A stretch of DNA of 64,000 nucleotides, taken from NCBI RefSeq assembly GCF_048403405.1, contig NZ_CP183129.1; one strand, given 5' to 3'. Positions 9,633-33,127 of this stretch are shown piece by piece; position 1 is the first letter of the stretch, and each line of letters begins with the position of its first letter. The notes under the pieces were generated by a model, which had not been told where the DNA came from, ran no database searches, and worked only from the letters and a program-made list of their open reading frames with translations. A program made the position numbers and the translations under genes. Origin of the DNA: Escherichia coli (GTDB taxonomy: Bacteria; Pseudomonadota; Gammaproteobacteria; Enterobacterales; Enterobacteriaceae).

Positions 9633-10645
9633 CTATCCAAAAAAATGGTCCCAGGCATTACCAGCCCACTCGATAAGTTTGTCTTTACCCTTACGGGTAA
9701 GCTCTTTGACAGGCTTTGGTAACGGAAAAGAATCAATAACGTCGTCGAGTATCCCGGAGATTACGCTGCCGAAGCCGTTTTTTGCTTCCGTCTTGACCTC
9801 TTCGGTTTTGAACTCATCCTTAAACTGCGAAGCCGTGCTACTTTTAGCCCGATCAGGCAAAGCCCGAATAATAGTCTCTACCAGACGAAGAATGTTGTAG
9901 CCCTCATCGGCGGAGACAGGTGTCACCGGATAGTGCGTAAAACCAAATCGTTCAGTAATGTAGGCTTCTTTCTTTTCGATGTTGATGCGCTGTGCAGGAG
10001 ATGGCTGATGCAGATGAGTATCCCACTCGCGGAATGGCTCAATTTTATCAACCTGGTTAAGGACGAATAAAACGCGCTCACCCCCACCAGCAGGGAGCAG
10101 AACATTGTTGTAGAAATGCTCATCCGCAGAAAAGGCCCGATCGTCACCTTTTATTACCCACAGGATGAGATCCAGGGAGGGAAGCAAATTGCGGTATAAA
10201 TCTTCATACTCCTATCCCGCCGGGCATTCTCACCGACACCAGGTATATCAATTATCTTCAGCGAATGTTTTCCGAAGCGTATATGCAATTCCTGAACTTC
10301 ACGAGTACATGCCTCAACGTCGCTAACTGCACAAACCTCCCCTTTAAACAGCGCATTACATACGCTGCTTTTCCCCGCGCCAGTTTTTCCCATGGCACCA
10401 ATCACGGGTTCATAGTCGATGGCTTCACTGATTTTGTTCAACAGCTTTTCCCGCAGTGGCTGAGGGAAAATATCAAGAATATCCCTGATGTCGGGTATGT
10501 GCGGTGTGCTATCACCTTTTTGCTCGTTGCTACCATTACGTTCTGGAAATATATTGCTCCACATTCCCAAAATCCCGCCTTCCCTTCTGGTGACGCCACT
10601 GGCATCAGTAATCATCCGGCCTTCGCCCTTTACCGGGTCATCCAT
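9633..10645 (-). pseudogene. YeeP/YfjP/YkfA-family GTPase, frameshifted
   Basis: G1 P-loop (GAMGKTGAGKSS) and G3 (DIPGVGE) in ORF 10154..10645; G4 (NQVDK) in overlapping ORF 9633..10187 in another frame. Confidence 0.6.
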
Positions 10646-10684: not shown

Positions 10685-11368
10685 TTACTCTCTGAAGGTC
10701 TGAATTACGTCACTTATGAAACGAAAGTGAGGGAGGGCTGAAATAAACTCTTCACTGGCAGTCAGAGCATCAAGTTCAGGCTTTCTGCGGAAAGAGGTAT
10801 CCAGAACGGTTACGGCGTTAACGTCTTCCATCCGAAACACCTGTAAATTTCTGGTGCGGGTAGCAACAAGAAACCAGTTTTTGGACTGAAATATCAGACG
10901 GCGGGGAGCTACTGCTTCGTAGCTTTTACCGTTAACCAATAATGTAACGGCGCGGTAGTCGCGGATAGCTTCCGCCAGTTTCAGAAAACAGGCAGTCTGC
11001 GTGACGGGAGAAGATAATGCCCCATGCCCAATAAGACACGGCGATACGCCGGAATTGCTGGCAATCAACCGGATCAACTTGCGGTTCTGAGCCGGAATGA
11101 TTCCTGAAATTCCTGAATTACGTATAAACGCAAATGTATTGGGTAAGTGCTCCCGGCCTGTTTGGCGGATAAGTCGGTAACTTCCGCTGCGATGCTCAAG
11201 ATCCAGATGGATCAGGCGTTGCTGAAAATCCCGCTGTAGGGTGCGTTCTGAGACACCAAATTCATCAGCTAATACTTTAAGCTCCAGAGATTCACCAGCC
11301 AGTAAGCGGCTGATAATGACTGATAGCCTGACAGACAGGCGGTCATGATGATCATGCTGTGTTTTCAT
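10685..11368 (-). CDS. HTH-WYL domain transcriptional regulator (YfjR-like)
   Basis: N-terminal HTH (LKVLADEFGVSERTLQRDF) followed by a WYL-like region; start set at internal Met 11368. Confidence 0.55.
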   Translation of the reverse strand: MKTQHDHHDRLSVRLSVIISRLLAGESLELKVLADEFGVSERTLQRDFQQRLIHLDLEHRSGSYRLIRQTGREHLPNTFAFIRNSGISGIIPAQNRKLIRLIASNSGVSPCLIGHGALSSPVTQTACFLKLAEAIRDYRAVTLLVNGKSYEAVAPRRLIFQSKNWFLVATRTRNLQVFRMEDVNAVTVLDTSFRRKPELDALTASEEFISALPHFRFISDVIQTFRE

Positions 11369-12036
11369 AGTGGGGACAGTCCTGTTCTCCCAAAATATCA
11401 TGGTGTTGATACGGGAGATTATGCCGTACAGGTACGACACGTTATGTCGTACTAAAGGGGAGTTGATTGAAAAAATAGTGGGGTAACTGCAGTTATCTAA
11501 TACTCTGAAATATAAGTTAATTGATTAACTCTAAGGCAAGGTCATCATCACAGAAACGACACAACCTGTCGCGTTGCGCATTGTAAGAAAGAGGGTATCT
11601 GATGCGTACGAAAATGATTTAGTTCTGAAAATAGTTGCAAATGAATCAATACATTCTTATTTTTACAAAAAGTTGGAATGCATAAGCCAATTGACCATTA
11701 GCAATGACAAATCCTTCTAGCGCACTTCGTTGATTAAATATAGATTTAGGTATCCAATCTATTCACACATAACGATTTGCTCCGCTGAACTAACCGAGCA
11801 ACACTGCAAAAAAATATACCACGCCGACAATCAAGAAAAGTACTCACCAGTATAAAGTATCAAGTAAATCAATGCGATGTAGAATAAACACCGGCCCTTA
11901 ATGTGATAGGAATCACATTCCTTCAGCCCTGCATTCCGGCATAATCATATCGGAAGGTTAAACTGCTCACGCCATATCCCTTTTTAGGGGGATATCTATG
12001 AATACCGTTTCAATCCACTAATACATAAGGTAATAA

Positions 12037-12579
12037 ATGGACGCAGAGAAAATTCAGTCAGATATAGATGCTCTTTTGACATACATGAACGATGACATGG
12101 AGAATCTTGGTGAAACAATAAAAACCGTTACATTTGGATTCGAAACAGGCCAGAACGACCGCATTGCTATAGACGAGTTGCTTCACTGGCGGGAAGAGTA
12201 TTTGTTCAAAATCATCAATATTTGCCATTCCCGCTCTCTATTACGTAAGGACTTTGGAGATTTTGAGCATGTATCCTTGACAGAAGAGGGTCAGAGTCGT
12301 GCTATATCAATCAAACACGGAAAAAATCGCTCTTACGAGTTAGGGGCCAGCATGCAAATCGCAACGTTAAATGTTCATGGGCCTGCACAGGTTGGTAACG
12401 GTAATACGCAAAACATCCACAATGTATTTAATCAATTACTTCAGCAGATCGAGAAATCTTCCGCTTCTGATGAAGAAAAACAGGAAGCCAAAAAACGCCT
12501 GGCGAAATTTTTGGAACATCCTTTGGTTGGTTCTATTGTCGGCGGTCTTGCTGGTTCCCTTCCTGGTCTAATGGGATGA
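12037..12579 (+). CDS. hypothetical protein, 180 aa, Gly-rich C-terminus
   Basis: First gene of a compact plus-strand cassette; 4-nt overlap with the next gene; C-terminal glycine-zipper-like tail (GSIVGGLAGSLPGLMG). Confidence 0.45.
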   Translation: MDAEKIQSDIDALLTYMNDDMENLGETIKTVTFGFETGQNDRIAIDELLHWREEYLFKIINICHSRSLLRKDFGDFEHVSLTEEGQSRAISIKHGKNRSYELGASMQIATLNVHGPAQVGNGNTQNIHNVFNQLLQQIEKSSASDEEKQEAKKRLAKFLEHPLVGSIVGGLAGSLPGLMG

Positions 12580-12848
12580 TGGAAGATCTTAAAAAAACGA
12601 TCCGACTGCGCTGTGCATTCTGCCGTTCGGAACAGTTCGCCTTACCTTACGAGGGTTACTCCCCCCCAAGTCATAGCTTTGTCGTTTGTGCCAACTGCGG
12701 GAGGGAAAACGACGTCACATCTCTGCTCATCGTTGCTAAATCGAAAGGGATGGAAATAGCTGAAGAGTATGCTGATGAACTAGTTGAACAGATGACGAAA
12801 GATCTGTTTAAAACTTTTAAAAACCGTAAATTCATAAAGATAAAGTAA
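12576..12848 (+). CDS. small zinc-ribbon protein
   Basis: 90-aa ORF with two CxxC pairs (CAFCRSEQF … CANCGREN); translationally coupled to the upstream gene. Confidence 0.45.
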   Translation: MMEDLKKTIRLRCAFCRSEQFALPYEGYSPPSHSFVVCANCGRENDVTSLLIVAKSKGMEIAEEYADELVEQMTKDLFKTFKNRKFIKIK

Positions 12849-12875
12849 CTGTTACAAAAGTTACATGGAGGACAT

Positions 12876-13850
12876 ATGTCAAGGACTAAAGTACTTTTTG
12901 CTTATTGCCATGAGTTAGATCGGTGTTTATCGATTGATGAAGCAAGAACAGAATTCTTTTCAAAAAAACCGCAAGACAGACAACGATTCACTTTCTCCTG
13001 CAGCGATCGCAACTGCAATGTCACCATTAGTGGTGTTAATTACCATGTCAAAGCGGAAGATGGTGAAAAATTCAAAGTTGCACATTTTCGTTCTCCACAT
13101 CCCCATAATCTGGGATGTGAATGGATGCAGTTTTCTGAGGAAGCTAACCAGCCCCGTCAGGCTAGTGAAACAGAGGCTGACTACACAGAAAGAAAGGCAA
13201 GGCAGAAGCTAAATGATTTTATCAATTGCTTCGATCCTTGTACTGATGAGACAGATTCTGGGCAAAAAAAAACTGGACAACTTACATCACTTTCGCAGGT
13301 AAACCATCTCGCCAAAGACAATGATTTGTCTAACGATAAATCCCACAAGTGGAGCCGTTATACACGAACTAACCAGCTACAGCGCCTAGTAGACACCTGG
13401 CAGGAAGCCAAGAAAACTCTTACATACGACGAGTTCAGAACATTAAAACTAAGAGTCACAAACTACGGAAAGGTTTATTTCCATGAATACATAACGCATA
13501 TTCAGAAAGGGCTAAAAAACCAATATGAAGGCGTCATTTTCGGCGGTGGTTCTTTGGTTAAACGTTATGGTCGTGGCTTTCTCATTCACTTTTTCGATAA
13601 ACATAACGATAAACCAATTCGTCTGTATATCGATAAGAACCTTATGGAGAAAGGGCGATTCAGTCATTATATTGATGAAATATTATCAACAGAGAATGTG
13701 AGATATTTTCGTGTCTTTTTGTTAAACCCAGAAGTTTCCGAAAAAAAAGACCGAACTGGCAAGCCAGTTATCAACCTTGAGATATCAAGCCTGCGACAAT
13801 TGGCGATTTACTACGAACTCAACTCTTCTGAAGATAATGATTTTGTTTGA
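12876..13850 (+). CDS. hypothetical protein, 324 aa, Cys/His-rich N-terminus
   Basis: Long ORF in an AT-rich cassette; contains A9 and A8 homopolymer tracts; no family recognised. Confidence 0.5.
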   Translation: MSRTKVLFAYCHELDRCLSIDEARTEFFSKKPQDRQRFTFSCSDRNCNVTISGVNYHVKAEDGEKFKVAHFRSPHPHNLGCEWMQFSEEANQPRQASETEADYTERKARQKLNDFINCFDPCTDETDSGQKKTGQLTSLSQVNHLAKDNDLSNDKSHKWSRYTRTNQLQRLVDTWQEAKKTLTYDEFRTLKLRVTNYGKVYFHEYITHIQKGLKNQYEGVIFGGGSLVKRYGRGFLIHFFDKHNDKPIRLYIDKNLMEKGRFSHYIDEILSTENVRYFRVFLLNPEVSEKKDRTGKPVINLEISSLRQLAIYYELNSSEDNDFV

Positions 13851-13887
13851 CAGTAGCATGCTAAATTTATAAAAAGGAGAAGTATTT

Positions 13888-14181
13888 ATGGTCCCTGGAT
13901 ATGTATACATATTAATCAACACAAGCATGCCTGGTTTAATTAAAATAGGTCGAACGCTACGCGACTCACGCATGCGTGCGCGTGAACTCTTCTCCACCGG
14001 AGTGCCAACACCGTTTCAAGTTGCTTTTGAGCTGTTCGCTGAACAACATGAAGCTCTCGAGGCTACGGTACATAATGAATTGAATGATTTTCGAGCTAAT
14101 GTGGCACGCGAGTTTTTCCGCTACCCACTCGACAAGGCCGTTGCATTACTAATTCAGCTGCCCCCTCCAAAACGCCACTGA
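13888..14181 (+). CDS. T5orf172/GIY-YIG-like domain protein
   Basis: N-terminus YVYILINTSMPGLIKIGRT … RARELFSTGVPTPF resembles the T5orf172 (GIY-YIG-like) domain; 97 aa. Confidence 0.45.
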   Translation: MVPGYVYILINTSMPGLIKIGRTLRDSRMRARELFSTGVPTPFQVAFELFAEQHEALEATVHNELNDFRANVAREFFRYPLDKAVALLIQLPPPKRH

Positions 14182-14188
14182 ACAGTAT

Positions 14189-14539
14189 GTGGCCGAAGAT
14201 ATAACACAACGGCTTAGAGAAAAATATCCTTTATATATACCTCCAGAAATTGTAGCGGTGAGGATTGTTCAAATGCCCGGAGGTGTCTGGCTAGAGATAA
14301 CGACTGAGAAAAAAATCGCTAGATACCTCGTAGATCAGATAATCCAACGAACAGATCTAGCATTCATTGTTGACACAGACGAGGCATTCTTTCGGTCAGA
14401 AGATGATGTCCGTTTAAATGCGAATAAACTGGTAAATGATTACGATATTTACTCTATCGTCATGACTACGGACCTCTTTCATGATTACGCCTGCCAACAA
14501 ATAACACGCGCGCATCATGCCCAGAGAAATTTCGTCTGA
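14189..14539 (+). CDS. hypothetical protein, 116 aa
   Basis: ORF 8 nt after the previous gene in a different frame; could be a separate gene or a frameshifted continuation. Confidence 0.3.
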   Translation: MAEDITQRLREKYPLYIPPEIVAVRIVQMPGGVWLEITTEKKIARYLVDQIIQRTDLAFIVDTDEAFFRSEDDVRLNANKLVNDYDIYSIVMTTDLFHDYACQQITRAHHAQRNFV

Positions 14540-14649
14540 TGCAACAGGCGTAACGATACCCCAAATTCGTTACTCACAGTAATCCATGTCCAGTTTGGGT
14601 GTAAATATCACGCATAATCGTGCCATTCATATTTAGAGATCATCCGGCA

Positions 14650-15770
14650 TAATCAATCTGCCAACGAAGGAGATCGCTACGCGTAAAGCCCGTTTTACTG
14701 AGCATCAGATCATCGCTGTGATTAAGTCAGTTGAAGCCGGACGAACCGTTAAAAATGTCTGCCGGGAGGCCGGTATCTCTGAAGCCACCTACTACAACAG
14801 GAAGTCCAGATACGGCGGCATGGAAACTTCTGATATTAAAATCTTGAGGACGAAAACCGCCGTCTCAAACAGATGTTTGCTGACCTGAGTCTGGAGAGCC
14901 GAGCGCTGAAAGACGTTATCGAAAAAAAGCTTTAAAACCAGCCTTTAAGCGTGAGCTGGTCACTCATCTGATAACGACATTCGGACTCAGTATCAGTCAG
15001 GCCTGCCGGAGTCTGAACCTGAGCATAACGTTTACCGTTACCGCCCGGATACCACGCGTGATGAACCCGTTATTGCCGCCCTGTAGGCTGCGGCTGAGCG
15101 ATACCCACGATACGGCTTTCCGAAGCTTTTCCAGATTCTGCGACGGCAAGGATACTCGTGGAATCACAAAAGGCTCCACCGTATTTACTGTCTGCTGAAG
15201 CTGAATTTTCGCCGTAAGGGCCAGCAACGGCTGCCGGTACGCATCCCTCACCACTGGCTACGCCAGAAGCGCTGAACCAGTGATGGTCTGTCGATTTCAT
15301 GCATGATGCGCTGGCCTGTGGCCGTCATTTTCGCACGTTCAATGTTATTGATGACTTTAATCGTGAGGCGTTATCGATTGAAATCGATCTGAATCTGCCA
15401 TCTCTGCGGGTGGTCCGTGTACTTGACAGGATCGCGGCAAACCGCGCTTATCCGGTCATGCTGCGCATGGATAATGGTCCGGAATTTATCTCTCTGGCGC
15501 TGGCTGAATGGGCAGAGATACACGCAGTAAAACTGGAGTTCATCCAGCCGGGTAAGCCGACGCAGAACGCTTTCATTGAGCGTTTTAACAGGATATACCG
15601 TACAGAAATACTCGATTTTTATCTGTTCAGAACGCTGAATGAAGTACGGGAAATTACGGAGAAATGGTAATCAGAATATAACTGTGAACGCCCGCATGAA
15701 TCACTGAACAATATGACACCGGAGGAATACCGACTTCACAATTATTTGGCCGGGATCTCAAAAAATGCAT
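14650..15770 (+). mobile_element. degraded IS3-family insertion sequence (IS407-group-like), OrfA/OrfB remnants
   Basis: OrfA-like HTH/leucine-zipper frame (…EATYYNRKSRYGG…LEDENRRLKQMFADLSLE) and OrfB-like DDE-core frame (DNGPEFIS…FIQPGKPTQNAFIERFNR…ERPHESL) interrupted by several frameshifts; no intact N-terminus. Confidence 0.7.
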
Positions 15771-16091
15771 GGAACTAAAACGGGTCTATTTACAGGGCCA
15801 TCAGTTAGAAAATGTGGCGTACAACGATAAACAGTTTGGTTGCATAAAAAAACGTAAGAGTTGGTTATCATTCTTTCAACGTAAGGGAATTACAGTAGCG
15901 GTAGGAAAAACTGATAGGTTATTTTACATTGAATTCAAAAAACTGTTTATTTAAGCCGTTAGCGATAAGTTTCATTGTAATTTAGCCGGAAAATGTTCCA
16001 TTGGGAAAACTGAATTGAGACTAATATTATATTAGATGAGAATATTTCTGATGTAAATATACCGAGGAATGGAGGCATCCCTCGGTATATG

Positions 16092-18167
16092 TTAATTCAC
16101 ACCCAGCGCCTTATAAACCGCATCAACCGGGTCTGAGTAAAAACTCACCTGAAACTTGGTAAATAACTCTGCCGGAACCGTTGGAATATCCATAGCCGAG
16201 GACATCGGCAACAGAACCCGTTTTGCGCCGCTGTCGAAGGCGAGCTGTAAACTGGCGGCAAGATCCTGCACCGGGTTAATTACTCCACCAAGGGTCATAC
16301 TGCCCAACACCACCATCTGTTCCTGCACCGGCTTTGCCAGCAATATCGAACATAAAGCGATAAGCGCAGCAAGACTGGTTGCGGTGCTAGGGCCAGTATT
16401 ATGCAGTTCAACGACATGAAGGTGATATTCATGATCAGAGAATTTCGCTGCCGCGCTTACCCGATTCAAATTGCCTTTGAAGTAATCGAAACCGACGCGG
16501 ATAGCTTCTTTCGCGGAGGTATTTGAACCCAGGCCCGATACACTATGCTTACCATTACCGGCAGTCATCTGCGTTTCAAAACGATACAGCCCGGTCATAC
16601 CGCTTTCTGCCTGAGTGACCAAATGCACAACGCCCGGCTTTGGCATTCCGGCAGGAATTAGTTCGCTGCCGCCCTGTTCCGGTACGCTTACAAAAAACTC
16701 TTCCAGCGTTTCGTTATCGATGTAGCTAAAGTTCACATCGAAGAACTCCAGGCCGCCCAGTTTTTTAAGTTGCTCTTTCACTCGACGACGAACTTCCATC
16801 GCATAGGTCAGGCAGACTCGTACATCTTCTTTGCTGTACGCGCCATCGGGATGCATGAGTTTTAACAACCCCGACACTGTACGTCGAACAGCAATCACGT
16901 CACGCTGATTGAGGTTATTTCCCAGCTTGAAGAATTTATCAATTGCATCGGAGAAGCTACGTTTACGCATCTCGCGCATGTATTCAGCGAGATAATCCGT
17001 AATCAAACCATAGCGATTGGTGAAAAATTCCGGGCGCATCTTAGGAATTTCCCAACCAGGAATATAGGCATGGAAGCGGTCAAAAAATGCAGTATCAATC
17101 ATCGCATCCGGGAACGGTGCTAGCAGATGGCTGGTTTTGACCAGTGTATCTACGCTCTGATTGATGTTGCCAACAAACACCATGGAGGCTTTGCCTTCAA
17201 TGGAGTCCCGACCACGAGAGAATGAGCCTGATGCCATGTAATCCTTCATGATCTGCACGCCATCTTTGTCTTTGAAGGTGATCCCTGCCACTTCATCAAA
17301 CGCGACGACGTCCCACATTCCCACAAGACCAATCTGCCGGCTGGCCATGTTGTAAAACAAGTTCGCCACCGTGGTTTGCCCGCCAGATACCAGCAGGGAG
17401 TTAGGAGAGCACTCTTTATAAACATGACTCTTACCTGTACCACGTGGACCAAGCTCGCAGACGTTATAGTTGTTTTCCACAAAGGGAATCATGCGAGTAA
17501 TCAGATGCCACTTGGTACGCTGCTCAATATTTGCAGGTTCCATCCCGACCGAACGTAACAGCACATCAATCCACTGGTCGCGATCAAACTGCTTGCGGGC
17601 TTCAAATACCTCGTCCATATCCATATTTGGCATCTGGATCGGCTTCAGTGTGAACAGCGAGAAAGGAGACGTTTTTTGCCCCTCTTCATAAAAGTAGTTC
17701 ACGGTGATCATGCACCAGATGCCACCAGTCAGCAGTTTCTCGTTGTCTTTCACCATCTGCGACGGCACCAGGGCATCTTTAATGCCAAGGTTAGAGAGCT
17801 GGGCTTCGTAAACGTCTTTCTTCTGATTTAGCTTTACCGTGACCTTATCGATAATCTTGTAAGAACCACGCTCGCGAATTAGTGATTTCACTTTTTCTGC
17901 TTCATCCGGGCGGACGTAGTTATCAGAAAGAATACGCTTAACCGACTGTAGCCCCTGCTCGACAACCTCATCGTCATCGGAGGCACAGTACATACCGAGT
18001 AGATATTCCAGTACGTAAACCGGAACATTCGCCCCTTCTTTAAGTTGCTTAGTCAGATCCTTACGCACCACGCGACCGCGAAAGTGCTGATTCAACAATG
18101 AATCCAGGTCCTGAGCCAACACAGAGGCCGTTTCCATGTTACTGGCTGAGTTATCCTGCTGTTGCAT
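16092..18167 (-). CDS. brxL: BREX BrxL (Lon-like protease-domain ATPase)
   Basis: 691-aa ORF with Walker A (LGPRGTGKSH) and C-terminal Lon-protease-like domain; last gene of the BREX operon. Confidence 0.85.
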   Translation of the reverse strand: MQQQDNSASNMETASVLAQDLDSLLNQHFRGRVVRKDLTKQLKEGANVPVYVLEYLLGMYCASDDDEVVEQGLQSVKRILSDNYVRPDEAEKVKSLIRERGSYKIIDKVTVKLNQKKDVYEAQLSNLGIKDALVPSQMVKDNEKLLTGGIWCMITVNYFYEEGQKTSPFSLFTLKPIQMPNMDMDEVFEARKQFDRDQWIDVLLRSVGMEPANIEQRTKWHLITRMIPFVENNYNVCELGPRGTGKSHVYKECSPNSLLVSGGQTTVANLFYNMASRQIGLVGMWDVVAFDEVAGITFKDKDGVQIMKDYMASGSFSRGRDSIEGKASMVFVGNINQSVDTLVKTSHLLAPFPDAMIDTAFFDRFHAYIPGWEIPKMRPEFFTNRYGLITDYLAEYMREMRKRSFSDAIDKFFKLGNNLNQRDVIAVRRTVSGLLKLMHPDGAYSKEDVRVCLTYAMEVRRRVKEQLKKLGGLEFFDVNFSYIDNETLEEFFVSVPEQGGSELIPAGMPKPGVVHLVTQAESGMTGLYRFETQMTAGNGKHSVSGLGSNTSAKEAIRVGFDYFKGNLNRVSAAAKFSDHEYHLHVVELHNTGPSTATSLAALIALCSILLAKPVQEQMVVLGSMTLGGVINPVQDLAASLQLAFDSGAKRVLLPMSSAMDIPTVPAELFTKFQVSFYSDPVDAVYKALGVN

Positions 18168-18177
18168 AACGCCTCAC

Positions 18178-20775
18178 TTAAAAGAAGTCATCCTGAAATG
18201 CCAGGTCGATCGTGATCGGGTAGCGACCATACTCTGTTGCGCTGTCCGCATTCTCCAGGATAAGAACATACTTGTTTTTACGATTGAATGCCGTCCCCAT
18301 GAGTTTCATGGTTACATCGCGGGTGCGTTTACCCATATCTTCGTTATCACTGTCGAAGCATACTGTTTCCGTGCCGGAGACGACCTGGTTGTTTTCATCG
18401 ACGATAAAGATATTCAGCGTGCGCGGCTCATTTAAATCATTCACTGCCGAAGTCTGAATAAAACCAATTTTATCAATGCTGTTAACCAGTTTGATCACCT
18501 GATCCCGCGCAACGACGGGCACGGGCTGCCGCTGGGGTTGCTTCTCAGCCGCTTTCTTTTCAAGCGCGCGAATCTTCAACACAGGAACACACACTTCCTG
18601 CAGCATGGCTCCGCCATGAACGAAACGAGCACCCCCTACGAAGTGGAAACGCTGTACTCCTTTGGGTAACAGGAATTCACTTTCATCGCTTGCGCCTGCA
18701 GTATCAGCCAGTTTGCCGTGCCAGCAAAATTCACTTTCAGGCAGTTGATGGCCTACAATAAAACGCTTATTCGCTTCAATCGTGTCTTTGGCTTTACTTT
18801 CCAGCTTCGTTTTATCCTGCTCCACCAGCGCTTGTTGTTGGAACAGGAAGCCGTGATCGGCGGTAACAAAAATTCGGCTGGCATTAAATCGGCTACGCAG
18901 GCGTGAAACCAGATCTTTTAGCTCAGTGATTGCACTTCGGCAGGCCTCAAACGTTTTATCTTCCGTTGCAGCCTTATCACCCATGGCATCTATAGTGTCG
19001 TGCCAGATATAAACTACGGAAGCGTTGCGGATTTGCTCGTTCACTTCCTGGTTATTGGCGTTCTGCAAGTCCTTTGCTTTCAGCGCTACACCATTCACCT
19101 TCGCAAGAATAGCGGCTCTTTTTTCAAACCCGGAAGTGGACATCCCATCGGCGTATACTACACCAGAATTATCAGGAAGATAGCTCAACGACTCATGAGG
19201 CAACAGTGCGGCCATGCCCAGTTGGGTATAGCTTGGGAGCACTCCGGTCTGGGAGCGCAGCTCTGCACTGAAGTGCTTCTCATAGTTGATATGCCTGCCC
19301 AGCTCTTCCGCCACTTCGTAGCGCAATGCATCCGAGATCACGACAAAAACACGTTTGACCTGCGAGGTGTCAAACTGACGTTTAACATTCTCTTTATAGA
19401 AATTGCGCTGCAGGGGTATGCCGCTAAACTGCCAGGCCTGCATACGGTTTTCCGCTTCCAGCAGTTTGTTCCAGCCGCGACTTAGTTCAGTCAGATACCA
19501 ATTGCTGTATAACTCTTCGATGAATTTATCCAGTTCATGCAGGATCATCGCCCCTTTGCTGTGCACTGGTGCAGCATATTCATTGAACAAACGATAGGTC
19601 TGATCGAAGCGATAAATTTCGTCACAATAGGCCTTCCAGAACGCACCTGTATCGGGGAAATTAAACCCGTCGGTGTAACGGTTACGCAAATTCAGCAAGC
19701 GTTCTGCCTGACGAATAGCATTCCAGATAGAAAGATACTCTGGGCGGGTTTGGCTCCAGTATTTCGCACTGCGCTCTGAAACCAACGCTTTAAACGCATC
19801 TCTGTCCAGAGTGGTGCTCTCTTCCTGCAACTGTGTCACCAGACCACGGATAATAAGTTGCTCAATAGCCTCGAAGGTTTCACATTTTGCCAGTGTATAT
19901 GGTGAGCTGTAGTTGTAGTGTTCTTTTGGCTGGAGCGTCTGCTGCAAATCCTCTGCACAGTAATCGTATTCTACTTTATAGCGACGATCGTTGCGCCACG
20001 CCCCCATAAAGGCCAGTGACGAGGCCCGACCAGCCGCGGTAGCCAGCACATTTTTACTCAACCAGTCACGATGTGCTTCATCACCCTGCGCCCAGAGATC
20101 GGTACAGAACAGTTTCAGAAGCAGATTTTCCATTGAAGGAGATTCAGACTGGTATCCCAACTCAAGGCGAAGAATTTCCCAAAGTACCTCATCCAGGCCA
20201 AGCTTCGTCAGTACGGCGAAAGTGTTCTCGAGTGCGCTATCATCTTGCTGCCGTGCTGCGACAAACTGCTGAACCAAAGCAAATAGTATTTCTTTGGTTT
20301 CGAAGGTACTGGCCCCGACCACCACCGCCAGCATTTTCTTATCGAGAGAGTTTTCCGTTTCGCGCTCGGTGACCCATCCCTTCAGGATCTGAGTTCGCTT
20401 AACGGTAAAGAAGGCTTTGCGAAGCTGAATATGTTCGCGTAAACCGAGTTGCGGGATACCCAGAGAATTCAGGGTGATCGCCGCATAATCAGCGTGGAAT
20501 TCGGTACTATAGAGGCGGATATCCAGCAACCAGTCCTGCTCGCGAGCAGGAACCTCACAGGTGAAATAGAGTAAAAATTTCTGCTCAGGCTCGTCGATTT
20601 CGAGTCGTTTTTTTGTTGCGAGCACAGAAACGCCACGCATATCCAGCAGCGTGACATTGTCGAGATCCAGCTCATTAATTGAATCAGTGAAGCGTTGTTC
20701 CGGGTCGTGCCAGAAGACGATACGGTTGTCGGTAAACTTCTGACGAAGCCCTGATTCCAGTTCTTTAAATTGCAT
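18178..20775 (-). CDS. pglZ: BREX PglZ (alkaline-phosphatase-superfamily protein)
   Basis: 865-aa ORF with PglZ-type motifs (…VTADHGF…); positioned between the methyltransferase and brxL. Confidence 0.85.
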   Translation of the reverse strand: MQFKELESGLRQKFTDNRIVFWHDPEQRFTDSINELDLDNVTLLDMRGVSVLATKKRLEIDEPEQKFLLYFTCEVPAREQDWLLDIRLYSTEFHADYAAITLNSLGIPQLGLREHIQLRKAFFTVKRTQILKGWVTERETENSLDKKMLAVVVGASTFETKEILFALVQQFVAARQQDDSALENTFAVLTKLGLDEVLWEILRLELGYQSESPSMENLLLKLFCTDLWAQGDEAHRDWLSKNVLATAAGRASSLAFMGAWRNDRRYKVEYDYCAEDLQQTLQPKEHYNYSSPYTLAKCETFEAIEQLIIRGLVTQLQEESTTLDRDAFKALVSERSAKYWSQTRPEYLSIWNAIRQAERLLNLRNRYTDGFNFPDTGAFWKAYCDEIYRFDQTYRLFNEYAAPVHSKGAMILHELDKFIEELYSNWYLTELSRGWNKLLEAENRMQAWQFSGIPLQRNFYKENVKRQFDTSQVKRVFVVISDALRYEVAEELGRHINYEKHFSAELRSQTGVLPSYTQLGMAALLPHESLSYLPDNSGVVYADGMSTSGFEKRAAILAKVNGVALKAKDLQNANNQEVNEQIRNASVVYIWHDTIDAMGDKAATEDKTFEACRSAITELKDLVSRLRSRFNASRIFVTADHGFLFQQQALVEQDKTKLESKAKDTIEANKRFIVGHQLPESEFCWHGKLADTAGASDESEFLLPKGVQRFHFVGGARFVHGGAMLQEVCVPVLKIRALEKKAAEKQPQRQPVPVVARDQVIKLVNSIDKIGFIQTSAVNDLNEPRTLNIFIVDENNQVVSGTETVCFDSDNEDMGKRTRDVTMKLMGTAFNRKNKYVLILENADSATEYGRYPITIDLAFQDDFF

Positions 20776-21344
20776 TATTGATTCTCAAACCATTCGACCA
20801 GTTCATGAGCGCTAGGGCAAGCAGGGTGTCTGGCAGAACTCTGAATATCAAAACCGTGATGCGTTACCATTCTCCTGGCAAATGCGGTTTTAGAACTTCC
20901 CGGTCCCTGTTTTCCTAGCTCGCGTGAAATTACTTTTAAACGATCCCATGGCATTTCAGTTGTAGCTTCAGGTAACTCTTCATTAAATGTGTCTACTTTA
21001 AGCCATTTTTTCATTGCCTCTGAATCGGCAAGAAACCAAGCCTCAACTGCTTTGACTGCGATAAACGAGATGTCGACATCTTGATGGGCAATTCGGGCCC
21101 GTACATCAGCAACAGATGCCGCATCTTCCAGGTCGGTCAGAATACAGATCCGTTCAGCACCTACATTTCTGAGCCTAGCAACGAAATTATCAACATACTT
21201 CGGTAACAGGTTACCACCACCTTTGGCATCAATAACGGGAGTTACCAATTCAAAATTATTCGTGCGCAGAAATGCAATGAACGCTGGTGAATTCACGATG
21301 ATTGACTCAGTATCACCTTCAACGATAAAACCTATTTTTACCAT
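20775..21344 (-). CDS. small TOPRIM-like protein (DUF4276-like) embedded in the BREX operon
   Basis: 189 aa; N-terminal IGFIVEGDTE and downstream ICILTDLED resemble TOPRIM Glu and DxD motifs; start overlaps the ATPase stop by 7 nt and its stop overlaps the pglZ start (TAATG). Confidence 0.6.
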   Translation of the reverse strand: MVKIGFIVEGDTESIIVNSPAFIAFLRTNNFELVTPVIDAKGGGNLLPKYVDNFVARLRNVGAERICILTDLEDAASVADVRARIAHQDVDISFIAVKAVEAWFLADSEAMKKWLKVDTFNEELPEATTEMPWDRLKVISRELGKQGPGSSKTAFARRMVTHHGFDIQSSARHPACPSAHELVEWFENQ

Positions 21345-22459
21345 GGCAAACCGCCATCAAACATATTCATCAGCCACGCGGTATCCAGTGGGATTTCCTT
21401 TTTATCAACCCCCGCATCTGAAGCATGCATCAGCTGAGTTTTCCCCTCTTTTTTACTAACAAACCACAGTTCGTCTGGTTCCAGATTGCGAACAATAGAT
21501 TCACTATGGGTAGTAATAACAATTGGATGATTCAAAGAGGCATTTTCACGCATCAATTGCACAAGTTCCCCAATGGCTTTTGGGTGAATACCGCGTTCAG
21601 GCTCTTCAATAATGGTCATCCCCGTTTGCTGTGCTCGACTCAAGATGGCCGTCATAATACAAAGCGTGAAGATGGTGCCGTCAGAGATAAGATGGGCAGG
21701 AAAGCGGGCACGAGTTCCCTGTTCTTTAAAGGTCAATACCGTTGAGCCATCCAATTTTTGTTTCTCGGTCGATACATTTTCCATCCCCGGAACGATGAGT
21801 TCCATCCACTCCAGTATTTGCTCTTTAAATTCGCTATTCGATTCGAGAGCAGCAAGCACAGAAGCAATGTTTCGACCATGACTGTCCAGAAATGTCGAGT
21901 CAGTTTTGGCGCTATCGGGCTCTTTAGCACGTAACGGATCGATGCGAAAAACAACAATATTGGTCAAAAAAGCGTACAGTTCACTTTTCCCCAGTAGCAT
22001 TAGTGCCGTCATATCTGACGAGTAGTTAGGGATTAAAGTCGCAGGGATTTCATCACTATCGCTCAGGCGAATCATAAGAGTATCAGGGTGCTTACGATCA
22101 ATATAAATATCTCCATCAATGACCAACTTTTCAGTGATTGTTGGTTTTTTATCCATGTTTTTGATCGTCAAGTCATAGGTAAACTGTTTTCCTCCCAGCT
22201 CAATTTGAAGGTGCAGTGAAGCCGTAGTCCGATTTTCCTTACGCAGCTTGTAGCAATGAATCTGCTGAAAACCGCCAAAATCACGGATTGCTTGTGTCGC
22301 CCCGGTTTTCACTACGGCACCAAAAAAAGCCAATGCATCGGTAATGTTACTTTTGCCCGCACCATTGGCTCCAGCAAAGGTGATAAATGGTGGGCTTTCC
22401 ACAAGGGAAAGCTCCGCGATGCTCTTGTAGCCTTTAATAATCAGGGGATGTTGATCCAT
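21338..22459 (-). CDS. ABC-type ATPase (AAA_15/AAA_21-like) embedded in the BREX operon
   Basis: 373 aa; Walker A (GANGAGKSN) near the N-terminus and C-terminal ABC-like H-loop region (IVITTHSESIV); start overlaps the pglX stop (TAATG). Confidence 0.7.
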   Translation of the reverse strand: MDQHPLIIKGYKSIAELSLVESPPFITFAGANGAGKSNITDALAFFGAVVKTGATQAIRDFGGFQQIHCYKLRKENRTTASLHLQIELGGKQFTYDLTIKNMDKKPTITEKLVIDGDIYIDRKHPDTLMIRLSDSDEIPATLIPNYSSDMTALMLLGKSELYAFLTNIVVFRIDPLRAKEPDSAKTDSTFLDSHGRNIASVLAALESNSEFKEQILEWMELIVPGMENVSTEKQKLDGSTVLTFKEQGTRARFPAHLISDGTIFTLCIMTAILSRAQQTGMTIIEEPERGIHPKAIGELVQLMRENASLNHPIVITTHSESIVRNLEPDELWFVSKKEGKTQLMHASDAGVDKKEIPLDTAWLMNMFDGGLPW

Positions 22460-33042: not shown

Positions 33043-33127
33043 TGGTGCCGAAGGCCGGACTCGAACCGGCACGTATTTCTACGGTTGATTTTGAATCAAC
33101 TGCGTCTACCGATTTCGCCACTTCGGC
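33043..33127 (-). tRNA. leuX: tRNA-Leu (anticodon CAA)
   Basis: Reverse complement reads GCCGAAGTGGCGAAATCGGTAGACGCAGTTGATTCAAAATCAACCG…GGTTCGAGTCCGGCCTTCGGCACCA, with CAA in the anticodon loop and a 3' CCA. Confidence 0.9.

Follow-up and report, generated by a model that had tools for sequence, protein, structure and literature searches.

A defence-island gene block of Escherichia coli: a mosaic of three units, one with a RHIM-like module

The gene block and the question it raises

Whether a compact row of same-strand genes in a bacterial defence island is one anti-phage system or a stack of separate units is the question raised by positions 12037–14539 of a 64,000-nt stretch of Escherichia coli DNA (contig NZ_CP183129.1 of assembly GCF_048403405.1; the whole stretch analysed is referred to below as the window). 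A first-pass annotation, made from the sequence alone, had described this block as a cassette of five genes that might form one anti-phage or toxin system. Five plus-strand open reading frames, ORF1 to ORF5, were found there with the reported positions, sizes, overlap and spacing; the gaps are 27 nt between ORF2 and ORF3, 37 nt between ORF3 and ORF4, and 7 nt between ORF4 and ORF5. Their DNA had been called strongly AT-rich, which overstates a moderate difference (GC content of 40–41% in the block vs. a window mean of ~48%). ORF4 and ORF5 are the two halves of one frameshifted gene; therefore, the block contains four genes, one of them a pseudogene, and not five. The features are as follows.

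11441–12024, non-coding leader, 584 bp
12037–12579, plus strand, ORF1, 180 aa
12037–12321, ORF1 winged-helix domain, residues 1–95
about 12349–12417, ORF1 disordered RHIM-like segment 'LNVHGPAQVGNGNTQNI', residues ~99–131
12520–12576, ORF1 glycine-zipper tail 'PLVGSIVGGLAGSLPGLMG', residues 162–180, preceded by two helices
12576–12848, plus strand, ORF2, 90 aa, ATGA overlap (4 nt) with ORF1; zinc ribbon C13xxC16...C38xxC41 with a C-terminal helix
12876–13850, plus strand, ORF3, 324 aa; variable acidic linker at residues ~121–160
13368–13820, ORF3 C-terminal OB-fold, residues ~165–315
13888–14181, plus strand, ORF4, 97 aa
14189–14539, plus strand, ORF5, 116 aa
13888–14539, plus strand, T5orf172/GIY-YIG-family gene made up of ORF4 and ORF5, a pseudogene in the window, with the frameshift at the C-run 14161–14165

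With little doubt, the block is a mosaic of three units, namely the ORF1–ORF2 pair, ORF3 and the T5orf172 pseudogene, and not one system. The units occur independently outside a few closely related enterobacterial islands. The co-occurrence check across genomes proposed in the first-pass annotation showed that the genes are not co-conserved, an outcome that it had itself named as contradicting a single system. The overall explanation favoured here, a stack of three independently mobile units in which the ORF1–ORF2 pair is proposed to act in abortive infection or exclusion, is considered moderately probable.

Three independent units

ORF1 and ORF3 had been described as resembling no recognisable family. 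Searches of Pfam, NCBIfam and PHROG found no significant named family for either of them, and PDB sequence-profile searches with their alignments gave nothing significant, but both contain recognisable folds, a winged helix and an OB-fold, respectively. The N-terminal domain of ORF1 consists of a three-helix bundle with a beta-hairpin wing, which superposes on solved domains of the MarR/DtxR/PadR-like fold. ORF2 is a zinc-ribbon protein, as had been noted, with two CxxC pairs (C13/C16 and C38/C41), whose four cysteines do not vary among 10 loci.

Homologues of ORF1 form 109 clusters and are found in Enterobacterales, Pseudomonas, Aeromonas and Herbaspirillum. In each of the 10 loci checked and in three viral contigs, ORF2 comes directly after ORF1, and its start lies between −4 and +12 nt relative to the ORF1 stop. 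This adjacency holds for ORF1 homologues down to 34% identity; the identity of ORF2 among the checked loci is 45–93%. ORF1 and ORF2 are thus a tightly coupled pair, in which ORF2 is the obligate partner. The pair was found as a two-gene islet in P. putida, beside sucD in Aeromonas, next to lysis genes in an Edwardsiella prophage, in a metagenomic CP4-like island, inside a type I restriction-modification (R-M) operon between hsdM/Bro-N and hsdS, and in the three viral contigs, which are from IMG/VR. These contexts support the recurrence of the pair at typical defence or moron positions. Neither ORF3 nor the T5orf172 gene was found at any of the ORF1 loci (seven distinct contexts and three viral contigs).

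Among known defence candidates, PDC-M14 was compared with the pair, and ORF2 matches PDC-M14A (4.4e-9, profile positions 13–99 of 152). ORF1 has no PADLOC model match, and neither ORF1 nor ORF3 matches the PDC-M14 models at E<=0.1; therefore, the pair is probably not PDC-M14 as defined. A weak match of ORF2 to the NCBIfam family ECs_2282_CxxC (24.7 bits) is under the cutoff of 37. In the literature on the RefSeq protein accessions, PDC-S57, PDC-M14, ECs_2282 and RHIM with prophage, nothing relevant was found. The chances that ORF1–ORF2 is an uncharacterised candidate defence or exclusion module are about even.

A winged-helix domain of the ORF1 type is also present at residues 164–256 of a 1446-aa protein from an ENA metagenome (P0425), along with a KAP-type P-loop ('GLFGDWGSGKSFF') and possibly a TIR-like N-terminus. 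This predicted architecture hints that the winged-helix domain may be a reusable sensor in conflict systems.

The second unit is ORF3. Its N-terminal domain contains the invariant residues C11, C42, C47, H70, H77 and C81, and its C-terminal domain is a five-stranded beta-barrel that superposes on solved OB folds. Homologues of ORF3 form 56 clusters in Gammaproteobacteria. At 70%, 60% and 49% identity, they are solitary genes on the opposite strand within clusters of conjugative type IV secretion systems (T4SS), namely in Klebsiella integrative and conjugative elements (ICEs; virB11–virB10 interval), Vibrio pVA1-type plasmids and a K. aerogenes IncFII plasmid, where no relatives of ORF1, ORF2 or ORF4/5 occur within 6–7 kb. 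When one genome of each species was scanned with the profile, 13 ORF3 loci were obtained. The gene after ORF3 is the same in 11 of these, a convergent gene for a protein of 128–148 aa that overlaps its 3' end, and 8 of these 11 lie between VirB11 and VirB10/VirB9 homologues; ORF1–ORF2 stands beside ORF3 in a single species (Rahnella victoriana, 1 of 13) and ORF4/5 in none of the 13.

In the T4SS clusters (locus L009, 7001–8325; also L004, L007 and L026–L037), ORF3 is in every case convergent with this partner gene, with an overlap of ~70 nt, and the two form a conserved antisense pair in the virB11–virB10 interval. The partner is 40–100% identical across Klebsiella, Pectobacterium, Pantoea, Vibrio and Aliivibrio and is absent from the window.

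The closest comparators of ORF3 are OB-fold modules for binding single-stranded DNA (ssDNA) that contain zinc elements (MCM10 internal domain, RPA, Teb1), and judging from the fold, ORF3 may bind DNA. It would accordingly be described as a protein with a Cys/His domain and an OB-fold, probably ssDNA-binding, captured from conjugative T4SS gene clusters. ORF3 as a nuclease was rejected, as the PADLOC REase_II match (9.4e-4) covers 100 residues in the low-complexity linker and the fold search returned no nuclease fold. Relatives of ORF3 in AlphaFold DB (A0A8T9D0D0, H3RLB2 and others) are named 'ATPase' or 'Chromosome segregation ATPase' in UniProt, yet have no Walker A motif and are modelled with an OB-fold; the 'ATPase' label of the family is likely a propagated mis-annotation.

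The third unit is the T5orf172 gene. A T5orf172/GIY-YIG-like N-terminus had been noticed in ORF4, and this domain was identified there; in the intact allele it is matched by Pfam T5orf172 (PF10544) at residues 4–86 (1.6e-13) and by MUG113 (7e-9), and this part of the protein lies in ORF4 of the window. E. coli FHI_NMBU_03 contains a single coding sequence of 217 aa, annotated as 'GIY-YIG nuclease family' (locus L002, 14493–15146), which is collinear with ORF4 and ORF5, and an intact version of 218 aa is present in Enterobacter asburiae. Relative to the 217-aa allele, two C are missing from the C-run 14161–14165 of the window, which leads to a stop at 14179–14181, so that the window copy has no uninterrupted full-length frame. 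ORF5 as a separate gene was rejected, since it is collinear with residues ~102–217 of intact alleles in >250 clusters. The nuclease-like domain on which the idea of a defence system partly rested is therefore present, but it is the only one in the block and belongs to the broken gene.

Full-length homologues (215–225 aa) of this gene form >255 clusters, are 53–91% identical and occur across phyla, in particular in Enterobacterales, Burkholderia, Sorangium, cyanobacteria and Sulfurospirillum. The Burkholderia copy stands alone after a Multi_ubiq/ThiF/BubE cluster in an ICE, with no relatives of ORF1–3. In cultured phages, only the T5orf172 N-terminal domain was found and not the 217-aa architecture.

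Two single-gene defence candidates that contain T5orf172, PDC-S57 and PD-Lambda-1, were compared with this gene. The intact 217-aa protein is similar to PDC-S57 in size and in the N-terminal T5orf172 domain (PADLOC 3.3e-29). In contrast to a full-length match, the alignment covers only profile positions 4–101 of 212, the N-terminal half; therefore, the C-terminal half is a different domain. The frameshift of the window copy is a further difference from PDC-S57. A weaker match was obtained to the C-terminus of PD-Lambda-1 (6e-9). The third unit would thus be a gene with a T5orf172 (GIY-YIG-type) domain and an uncharacterised C-terminal domain, inactivated in the window by the frameshift; nuclease activity of the intact protein is predicted from the domain match.

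Decay of the block in E. coli

Among 5426 complete E. coli genomes, 25 carry the block, and the 584-bp leader is present in exactly the same 25; the leader accompanies the block in E. coli only. The region 11400–14700 is 100% identical to E. coli TUM14771, MS 69-1 and six further strains.

Four haplotypes were examined, and each contains at least one gene with a 1–2-nt homopolymer indel. In the window and MS20657 type, the T5orf172 gene is broken and ORF1–3 are intact; in the ws5-3 type, both ORF3 (A9 to A8, 13264–13272) and the T5orf172 gene are broken; in the 2014C-3338 and SCU-171 type, ORF1 (+C at 12229, CCC to CCCC) and the T5orf172 gene are broken; in the FHI_NMBU_03 type, ORF2 is broken (C7 to C9, 12661–12667) and the T5orf172 gene is intact. 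By annotation, 14 of the 25 genomes match the window pattern, with three hypothetical proteins and a 97-aa GIY-YIG fragment. ORF2 is frameshifted beside an intact ORF1 in five E. coli genomes, and the reverse was found in three. Sequencing error as the source of the frameshifts was judged unlikely, each state being common to several independent assemblies. The rarity of the block, together with a frameshift in each haplotype, points to relaxed selection in E. coli, and the maintenance of ORF1–3 seems to be relaxed there; the homopolymer indels could reflect relaxed selection or slipped-strand phase variation.

These data bear on the possibility that the block in this E. coli lineage is non-functional, unexpressed hitch-hiking DNA drifting to loss. 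Such a fate would agree with the small number of carriers, with the four independent indels in four different genes and with the leader, where the scan for sigma-70 sites gave no strong match and neither a promoter nor a terminator was convincing, although a consensus scan is weak evidence; an Rfam search of the leader gave no match. On the other hand, ORF1–3 are intact in the window and MS20657 haplotypes, with which the annotation of the 14 genomes agrees, and between genera ORF1–3 are real genes under purifying selection, with ratios of nonsynonymous to synonymous substitution rates (dN/dS) of 0.06–0.4 (ORF1 0.06, and 0.27 for the closest pair; ORF2 0.17–0.44; ORF3 0.21–0.26). Hitch-hiking is therefore a possible but less probable account of the block than a stack of mobile units.

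The RHIM-like module of ORF1 and a possible mechanism

A profile search with ORF1 over 1.84 billion representative proteins gave 737 representative clusters at E<=1e-3. About 100 of the 150 best matches cover nearly the whole profile, and many others cover only the last ~75 residues. The corresponding module (ORF1 residues ~100–180) is fused elsewhere to other N-terminal domains, namely a small beta-rich domain, a different winged-helix-like domain or longer helical regions. Its consensus is 'I.I.NS.G.QIGD.N.QNI......L...ID.S.AS.EEK.EAKSRL..FLEHPLV.SI.GG.AG.L.GL'.

Of 38 module relatives, the Pfam RHIM model (PF12721) matches 9 at E<=1e-3; this number rises to 23 at E<=0.1, and the best match has a value of 8.8e-6. 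A hidden Markov model (HMM) of the module, built from 59 sequences, scores the RHIM peptides of RIPK1 and RIPK3 at 17.9 and 20.0 bits, while the maximum among 400 shuffles is 6.0 bits. These peptides are 'IYNSTGIQIGAYNYM' for RIPK1 and 'IYNCSGVQVGDNNYL' for RIPK3, and the family consensus 'I.I.NS.G.QIGD.N.QNI' is closely parallel to them. Residues 99–178 of ORF1 score 105 bits against the same HMM, by which the C-terminus of ORF1 is identified as homologous to the RHIM-like module. Its segment 'LNVHGPAQVGNGNTQNI' is a diverged homologue that retains the invariant Q118, G120 and N123; residues Q, G, N, P and L are invariant in the ORF1 C-terminal module. In the AlphaFold2 model, ORF1 residues 97–122 are unstructured (pLDDT <50).

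Proteins consisting of the module without the ORF1 N-domain lack an ORF2 partner. In lambdoid phages, the module gene lies on the opposite strand between the Q antiterminator gene and holin/endolysin/spanin genes in the two cases examined, Cronobacter phage ENT39118 gp16 (locus L046, 3222–3716) and an IMG/VR contig (L064, 3830–4330); this position is a classic moron slot. In cultured phages, only the C-terminal module of ORF1 was found. About 22 IMG/VR viral contigs (L053–L074) encode proteins of 162–195 aa with a near-canonical RHIM-like motif, for example 'ITINNSTGIQIGDHNVQHI' (L073), and a glycine-zipper tail.

Motifs of this kind have been reported in bacteria. RHIM-like BASS3 was described from multicellular Actinobacteria and Cyanobacteria, where it occurs in NLR/Bell gene pairs (Dyrka et al., 10.1101/2020.01.06.895854). 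ORF1 differs from these in its hosts, which are Gammaproteobacteria and prophages, in having no NLR partner, and in the helices and glycine zipper that follow the motif. In the Bab/Agp abortive-infection system of E. coli ECOR25, a pore-forming effector is activated through a BASS11 amyloid motif that two neighbouring proteins have in common. The N-terminus of Bab is a Bell-like pore domain and BASS11 lies at its C-terminus; the counterpart of this motif is in Agp (Ibarlosa et al., 10.1101/2024.11.07.622273). ORF1 is similarly small and encoded in prophages and defence islands, with a short predicted amyloid-type motif and a membrane-directed element, and the logic proposed for it, assembly-triggered membrane damage, is similar as well. 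Unlike Bab, it has an N-terminal winged helix, an internal RHIM-like rather than BASS11 segment and a C-terminal glycine zipper; unlike Agp, ORF2 has no matching motif, and there is no sequence homology between ORF1–ORF2 and Bab/Agp.

From these features, we infer a mechanism for the pair as a translationally coupled, prophage- or island-borne abortive-infection or exclusion device. The winged-helix domain of ORF1 would be its sensing or DNA-binding end, the disordered RHIM-like segment would drive homotypic (amyloid-like) self-assembly, and the glycine-zipper tails, once clustered, would enter the inner membrane or disturb it. ORF2, the zinc-ribbon protein, may be a regulator or co-sensor of ORF1. 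That the pair acts by amyloid-like assembly and membrane attack is a tentative proposal. More doubtful still is its extension to the family, in which ORF1 would belong to a large, apparently undescribed proteobacterial and prophage family of suicide switches with a RHIM-type motif of the form 'NSxGIQIGDHNxQNI', which is almost the same as in RIPK1 and RIPK3, a helical hairpin, a GxxxG tail and interchangeable N-terminal sensors. No paper describing the ORF1 family was found in the literature outside subscription journals.

Several observations weigh against the stack of mobile units with such a device. ORF1 itself has no Pfam RHIM match even at E<=10, its core being AQVG (in AQVGNGN) and not I/V-Q-I/V-G, and the model matches none of the 34 members of the winged-helix subfamily at E<=0.1. 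With a Kyte-Doolittle value of 1.29 over 19 residues, the ORF1 tail has only moderate hydrophobicity, and its model is poor. In six-frame translations of the window and 11 ORF1–ORF2 loci, HMM and regular-expression searches found the motif in ORF1 only; without a second carrier nearby, ORF1 is not one half of a receptor/effector motif pair of the Bab/Agp or NLR/Bell kind. The rarity of the block in E. coli and the indels in all four haplotypes examined count against it too. Finally, the four genes could be co-transcribed, because they are on one strand with 27–37-nt spacing, and cooperation in the enterobacterial loci is possible.

An alternative for the pair alone, which we regard as unlikely, is a toxin–antitoxin or autoregulatory addiction pair, with a winged-helix antitoxin/repressor and a zinc-ribbon toxin or the reverse; the RHIM-like stretch would then be a mere linker, and the tail would serve as a tag for oligomerisation or degradation. 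The small size, the DNA-binding gene in first place, the translational coupling, the wide horizontal spread and the sites in prophages, islands and two-gene islets between housekeeping genes would all suit such a pair. However, natural knock-outs exist in both directions (ORF2 broken, n=5; ORF1 broken, n=3), so that, at least at native expression, neither protein appears to be a toxin whose constitutive lethality has to be countered by the other. Loss of a single gene, which type II toxin–antitoxin pairs do not tolerate, thus occurs in ORF1–ORF2, a suggestive observation only. Moreover, the C-terminal module of ORF1 is more conserved than expected of a linker and recurs without ORF2 on unrelated N-terminal domains. 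The exclusion or abortive-infection device is the preferred proposal for the pair.

Loci that share the gene order

Enterobacter asburiae contains ORF1–3 and the intact T5orf172 gene in DNA 92.8% identical to 12025–14503 of the window, and Hafnia paralvei and Rahnella contain ORF1–3 in this order without the T5orf172 gene. In all three genomes, the block is preceded, at a distance of 66 nt, by a complete TerY-P triad on the same strand (PADLOC: TerY 3.8e-173, PP2C 3.8e-108, STK_OB 6.8e-267). The homology of the window to these loci begins only 12 nt upstream of the ORF1 ATG, at position 12025; the 584-bp leader is unrelated to their upstream DNA, and TerY-P was not found in the window. In comparison with Enterobacter (locus L039, 6163–7975; window 12037–13850), the synonymous divergence dS is 0.50 for ORF1, 0.08 for ORF2 and 0.16 for ORF3. 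The value of ORF1 is far above the other two, which suggests recombination inside the block with a breakpoint near the ORF1/ORF2 junction. Since the order is kept only among loci with 87–93% DNA identity, recent transfer is indicated, and because the units and TerY-P also occur apart, the shared order is taken as a recently shared stack in related islands and gives no evidence that the genes are functionally linked.

The position after TerY-P raises the possibility that ORF1–ORF2–ORF3 are accessory parts of this system and that the window is a remnant after TerY-P loss, hence the decay by frameshift. The 66-nt distance to the kinase gene on the same strand in three genera, the start of homology just upstream of ORF1 and the frameshifts in all four sampled E. 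coli haplotypes are consistent with this possibility, but it is improbable on other grounds. In E. coli G3/10, TerY-P has a type I R-M system directly behind it and neither ORF1–3 nor the T5orf172 gene, and ORF1–ORF2 and ORF3 mostly occur without TerY-P. Gao et al. (2020, cited in PMC11090510) are reported to have described TerY-P with an OB-fold kinase as a defence system that works alone. It consists of a VWA protein, a PP2C phosphatase and a Ser/Thr kinase-OB protein, and no homology of these to ORF1–3 was found; derivation of the ORF3 OB domain from that of the kinase was rejected, with an hhalign probability of 0.1%.

The least probable alternative, that of one co-transcribed multi-gene anti-phage or toxin system with ORF1–3 and the T5orf172 nuclease cooperating under WYL control, would draw on the single strand, the 4-nt overlap, the short gaps, the defence-island setting, the four intact genes in the same order in Enterobacter asburiae and the like order of ORF1–3 in Hafnia and Rahnella, but it is very hard to reconcile with units that are fully separate beyond the 87–93% identical loci, with the absence of the T5orf172 gene in Hafnia and Rahnella, with a WYL gene that is not adjacent in related genomes, with the broken nuclease gene of the window and with the dS values that point to recombination in the block.

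Island setting and flanking genes

The host element is a CP4-like integrative island of the E. coli chromosome adjoining tRNA-Leu(CAA), and the block is defence cargo of this leuX-integrated island, which is packed with defence systems such as BREX-1 with HEC-01 inside it, AbiEii and CbtA/YeeU. The features around the block are as follows.

9633–10645, minus strand, YeeP/YfjP-like GTPase gene, split into two ORFs (184 and 163 aa)
10685–11440, minus strand, WYL-domain protein (PADLOC WYL 1.9e-16), annotated beside the frameshifted GTPase
14673–15778, plus strand, degraded IS3-family transposase, RefSeq 'frameshifted; internal stop', the right boundary in the window haplotype
16092–18167, brxL
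20775–22459, minus strand, HEC-01 candidate system
33043–33127, tRNA-Leu(CAA)

The island genes before the block encode AbiEii, CbtA/YeeU, RadC, DUF932, an inovirus-Gp2/YagK-like protein, an AlpA-type regulator, the frameshifted GTPase and the WYL protein. Beyond the block lie the degraded IS3 element and then the BREX-1 operon, entered from the brxL end. The flanks reported in the first-pass annotation, a minus-strand WYL protein and a frameshifted IS3 transposase, and the nearby BREX system in a defence island were thus found as described.

The WYL gene is an island backbone neighbour of the GTPase gene and no conserved partner of the modules. In Enterobacter and Hafnia no WYL gene stands next to the block, and in a metagenomic island a 40% identical homologue stands beside DUF932 and GTPase genes, ~2.8 kb from another ORF1–ORF2 pair. 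Its role as BrxR or as a dedicated regulator was ruled out by position and by the missing conserved linkage: BrxR lies directly upstream of brxA, at the BREX 5' end, while the WYL gene lies past the brxL (3') end, with the block and the IS3 remnant between, next to the island GTPase gene. The GTPase gene is annotated as frameshifted in the identical RefSeq genomes and is intact (337 aa) in FHI_NMBU_03 and ws5-3.

In genomes of the FHI_NMBU_03 type, the right flank is swapped, and homology to the window stops near 14600. The flank of FHI_NMBU_03 (locus L002, 15177–23911) contains a restriction endonuclease gene broken by a frameshift, type I R-M genes and the gene of a DUF4917 protein that matches PADLOC PDC-S21 (2e-102). 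Since R-M and PDC-S21 occupy the place of IS3 and BREX there, the island slot hosts interchangeable defence cargo.

Two further elements were found to the right of the block. The IS3 remnant contains a full-length Rfam match to isrN, an Hfq-binding small RNA (14934–15075, minus strand, 136.9 bits, E 4e-31). The HEC-01 candidate is embedded in BREX-1 between pglZ and pglX and consists of an AAA ATPase (372 aa) and a 188-aa protein (PADLOC: A 8e-181, B 4e-99), with weaker similarity to AriA, AbiLi and GajA-type ATPases.

Significance

Compact same-strand arrays in defence islands can be chance stacks; therefore, treatment of this block as one system would misdirect cloning. The proper experimental units are ORF1 with ORF2, ORF3 alone and an intact T5orf172 allele of another strain. 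Of lesser interest is ORF3, which represents an uncharacterised OB-fold protein that is widespread in conjugative T4SS clusters.

The main interest lies in the ORF1–ORF2 pair and the wider family with the RHIM-like tail. RHIM-type amyloid switches are known from animal necroptosis, fungal PP/HET-s and filamentous bacteria. Bab/Agp, with a different motif, is the only comparable enterobacterial case found so far. The ORF1 family offers a test of whether unicellular enterobacteria and their phages use RHIM-type amyloid switches. If the proposal is true, single-protein suicide switches of the necroptosis/HET-S-like type (with ORF2, two-protein ones) would be widespread in unicellular Gammaproteobacteria, where they would occur as morons of lambdoid prophages.

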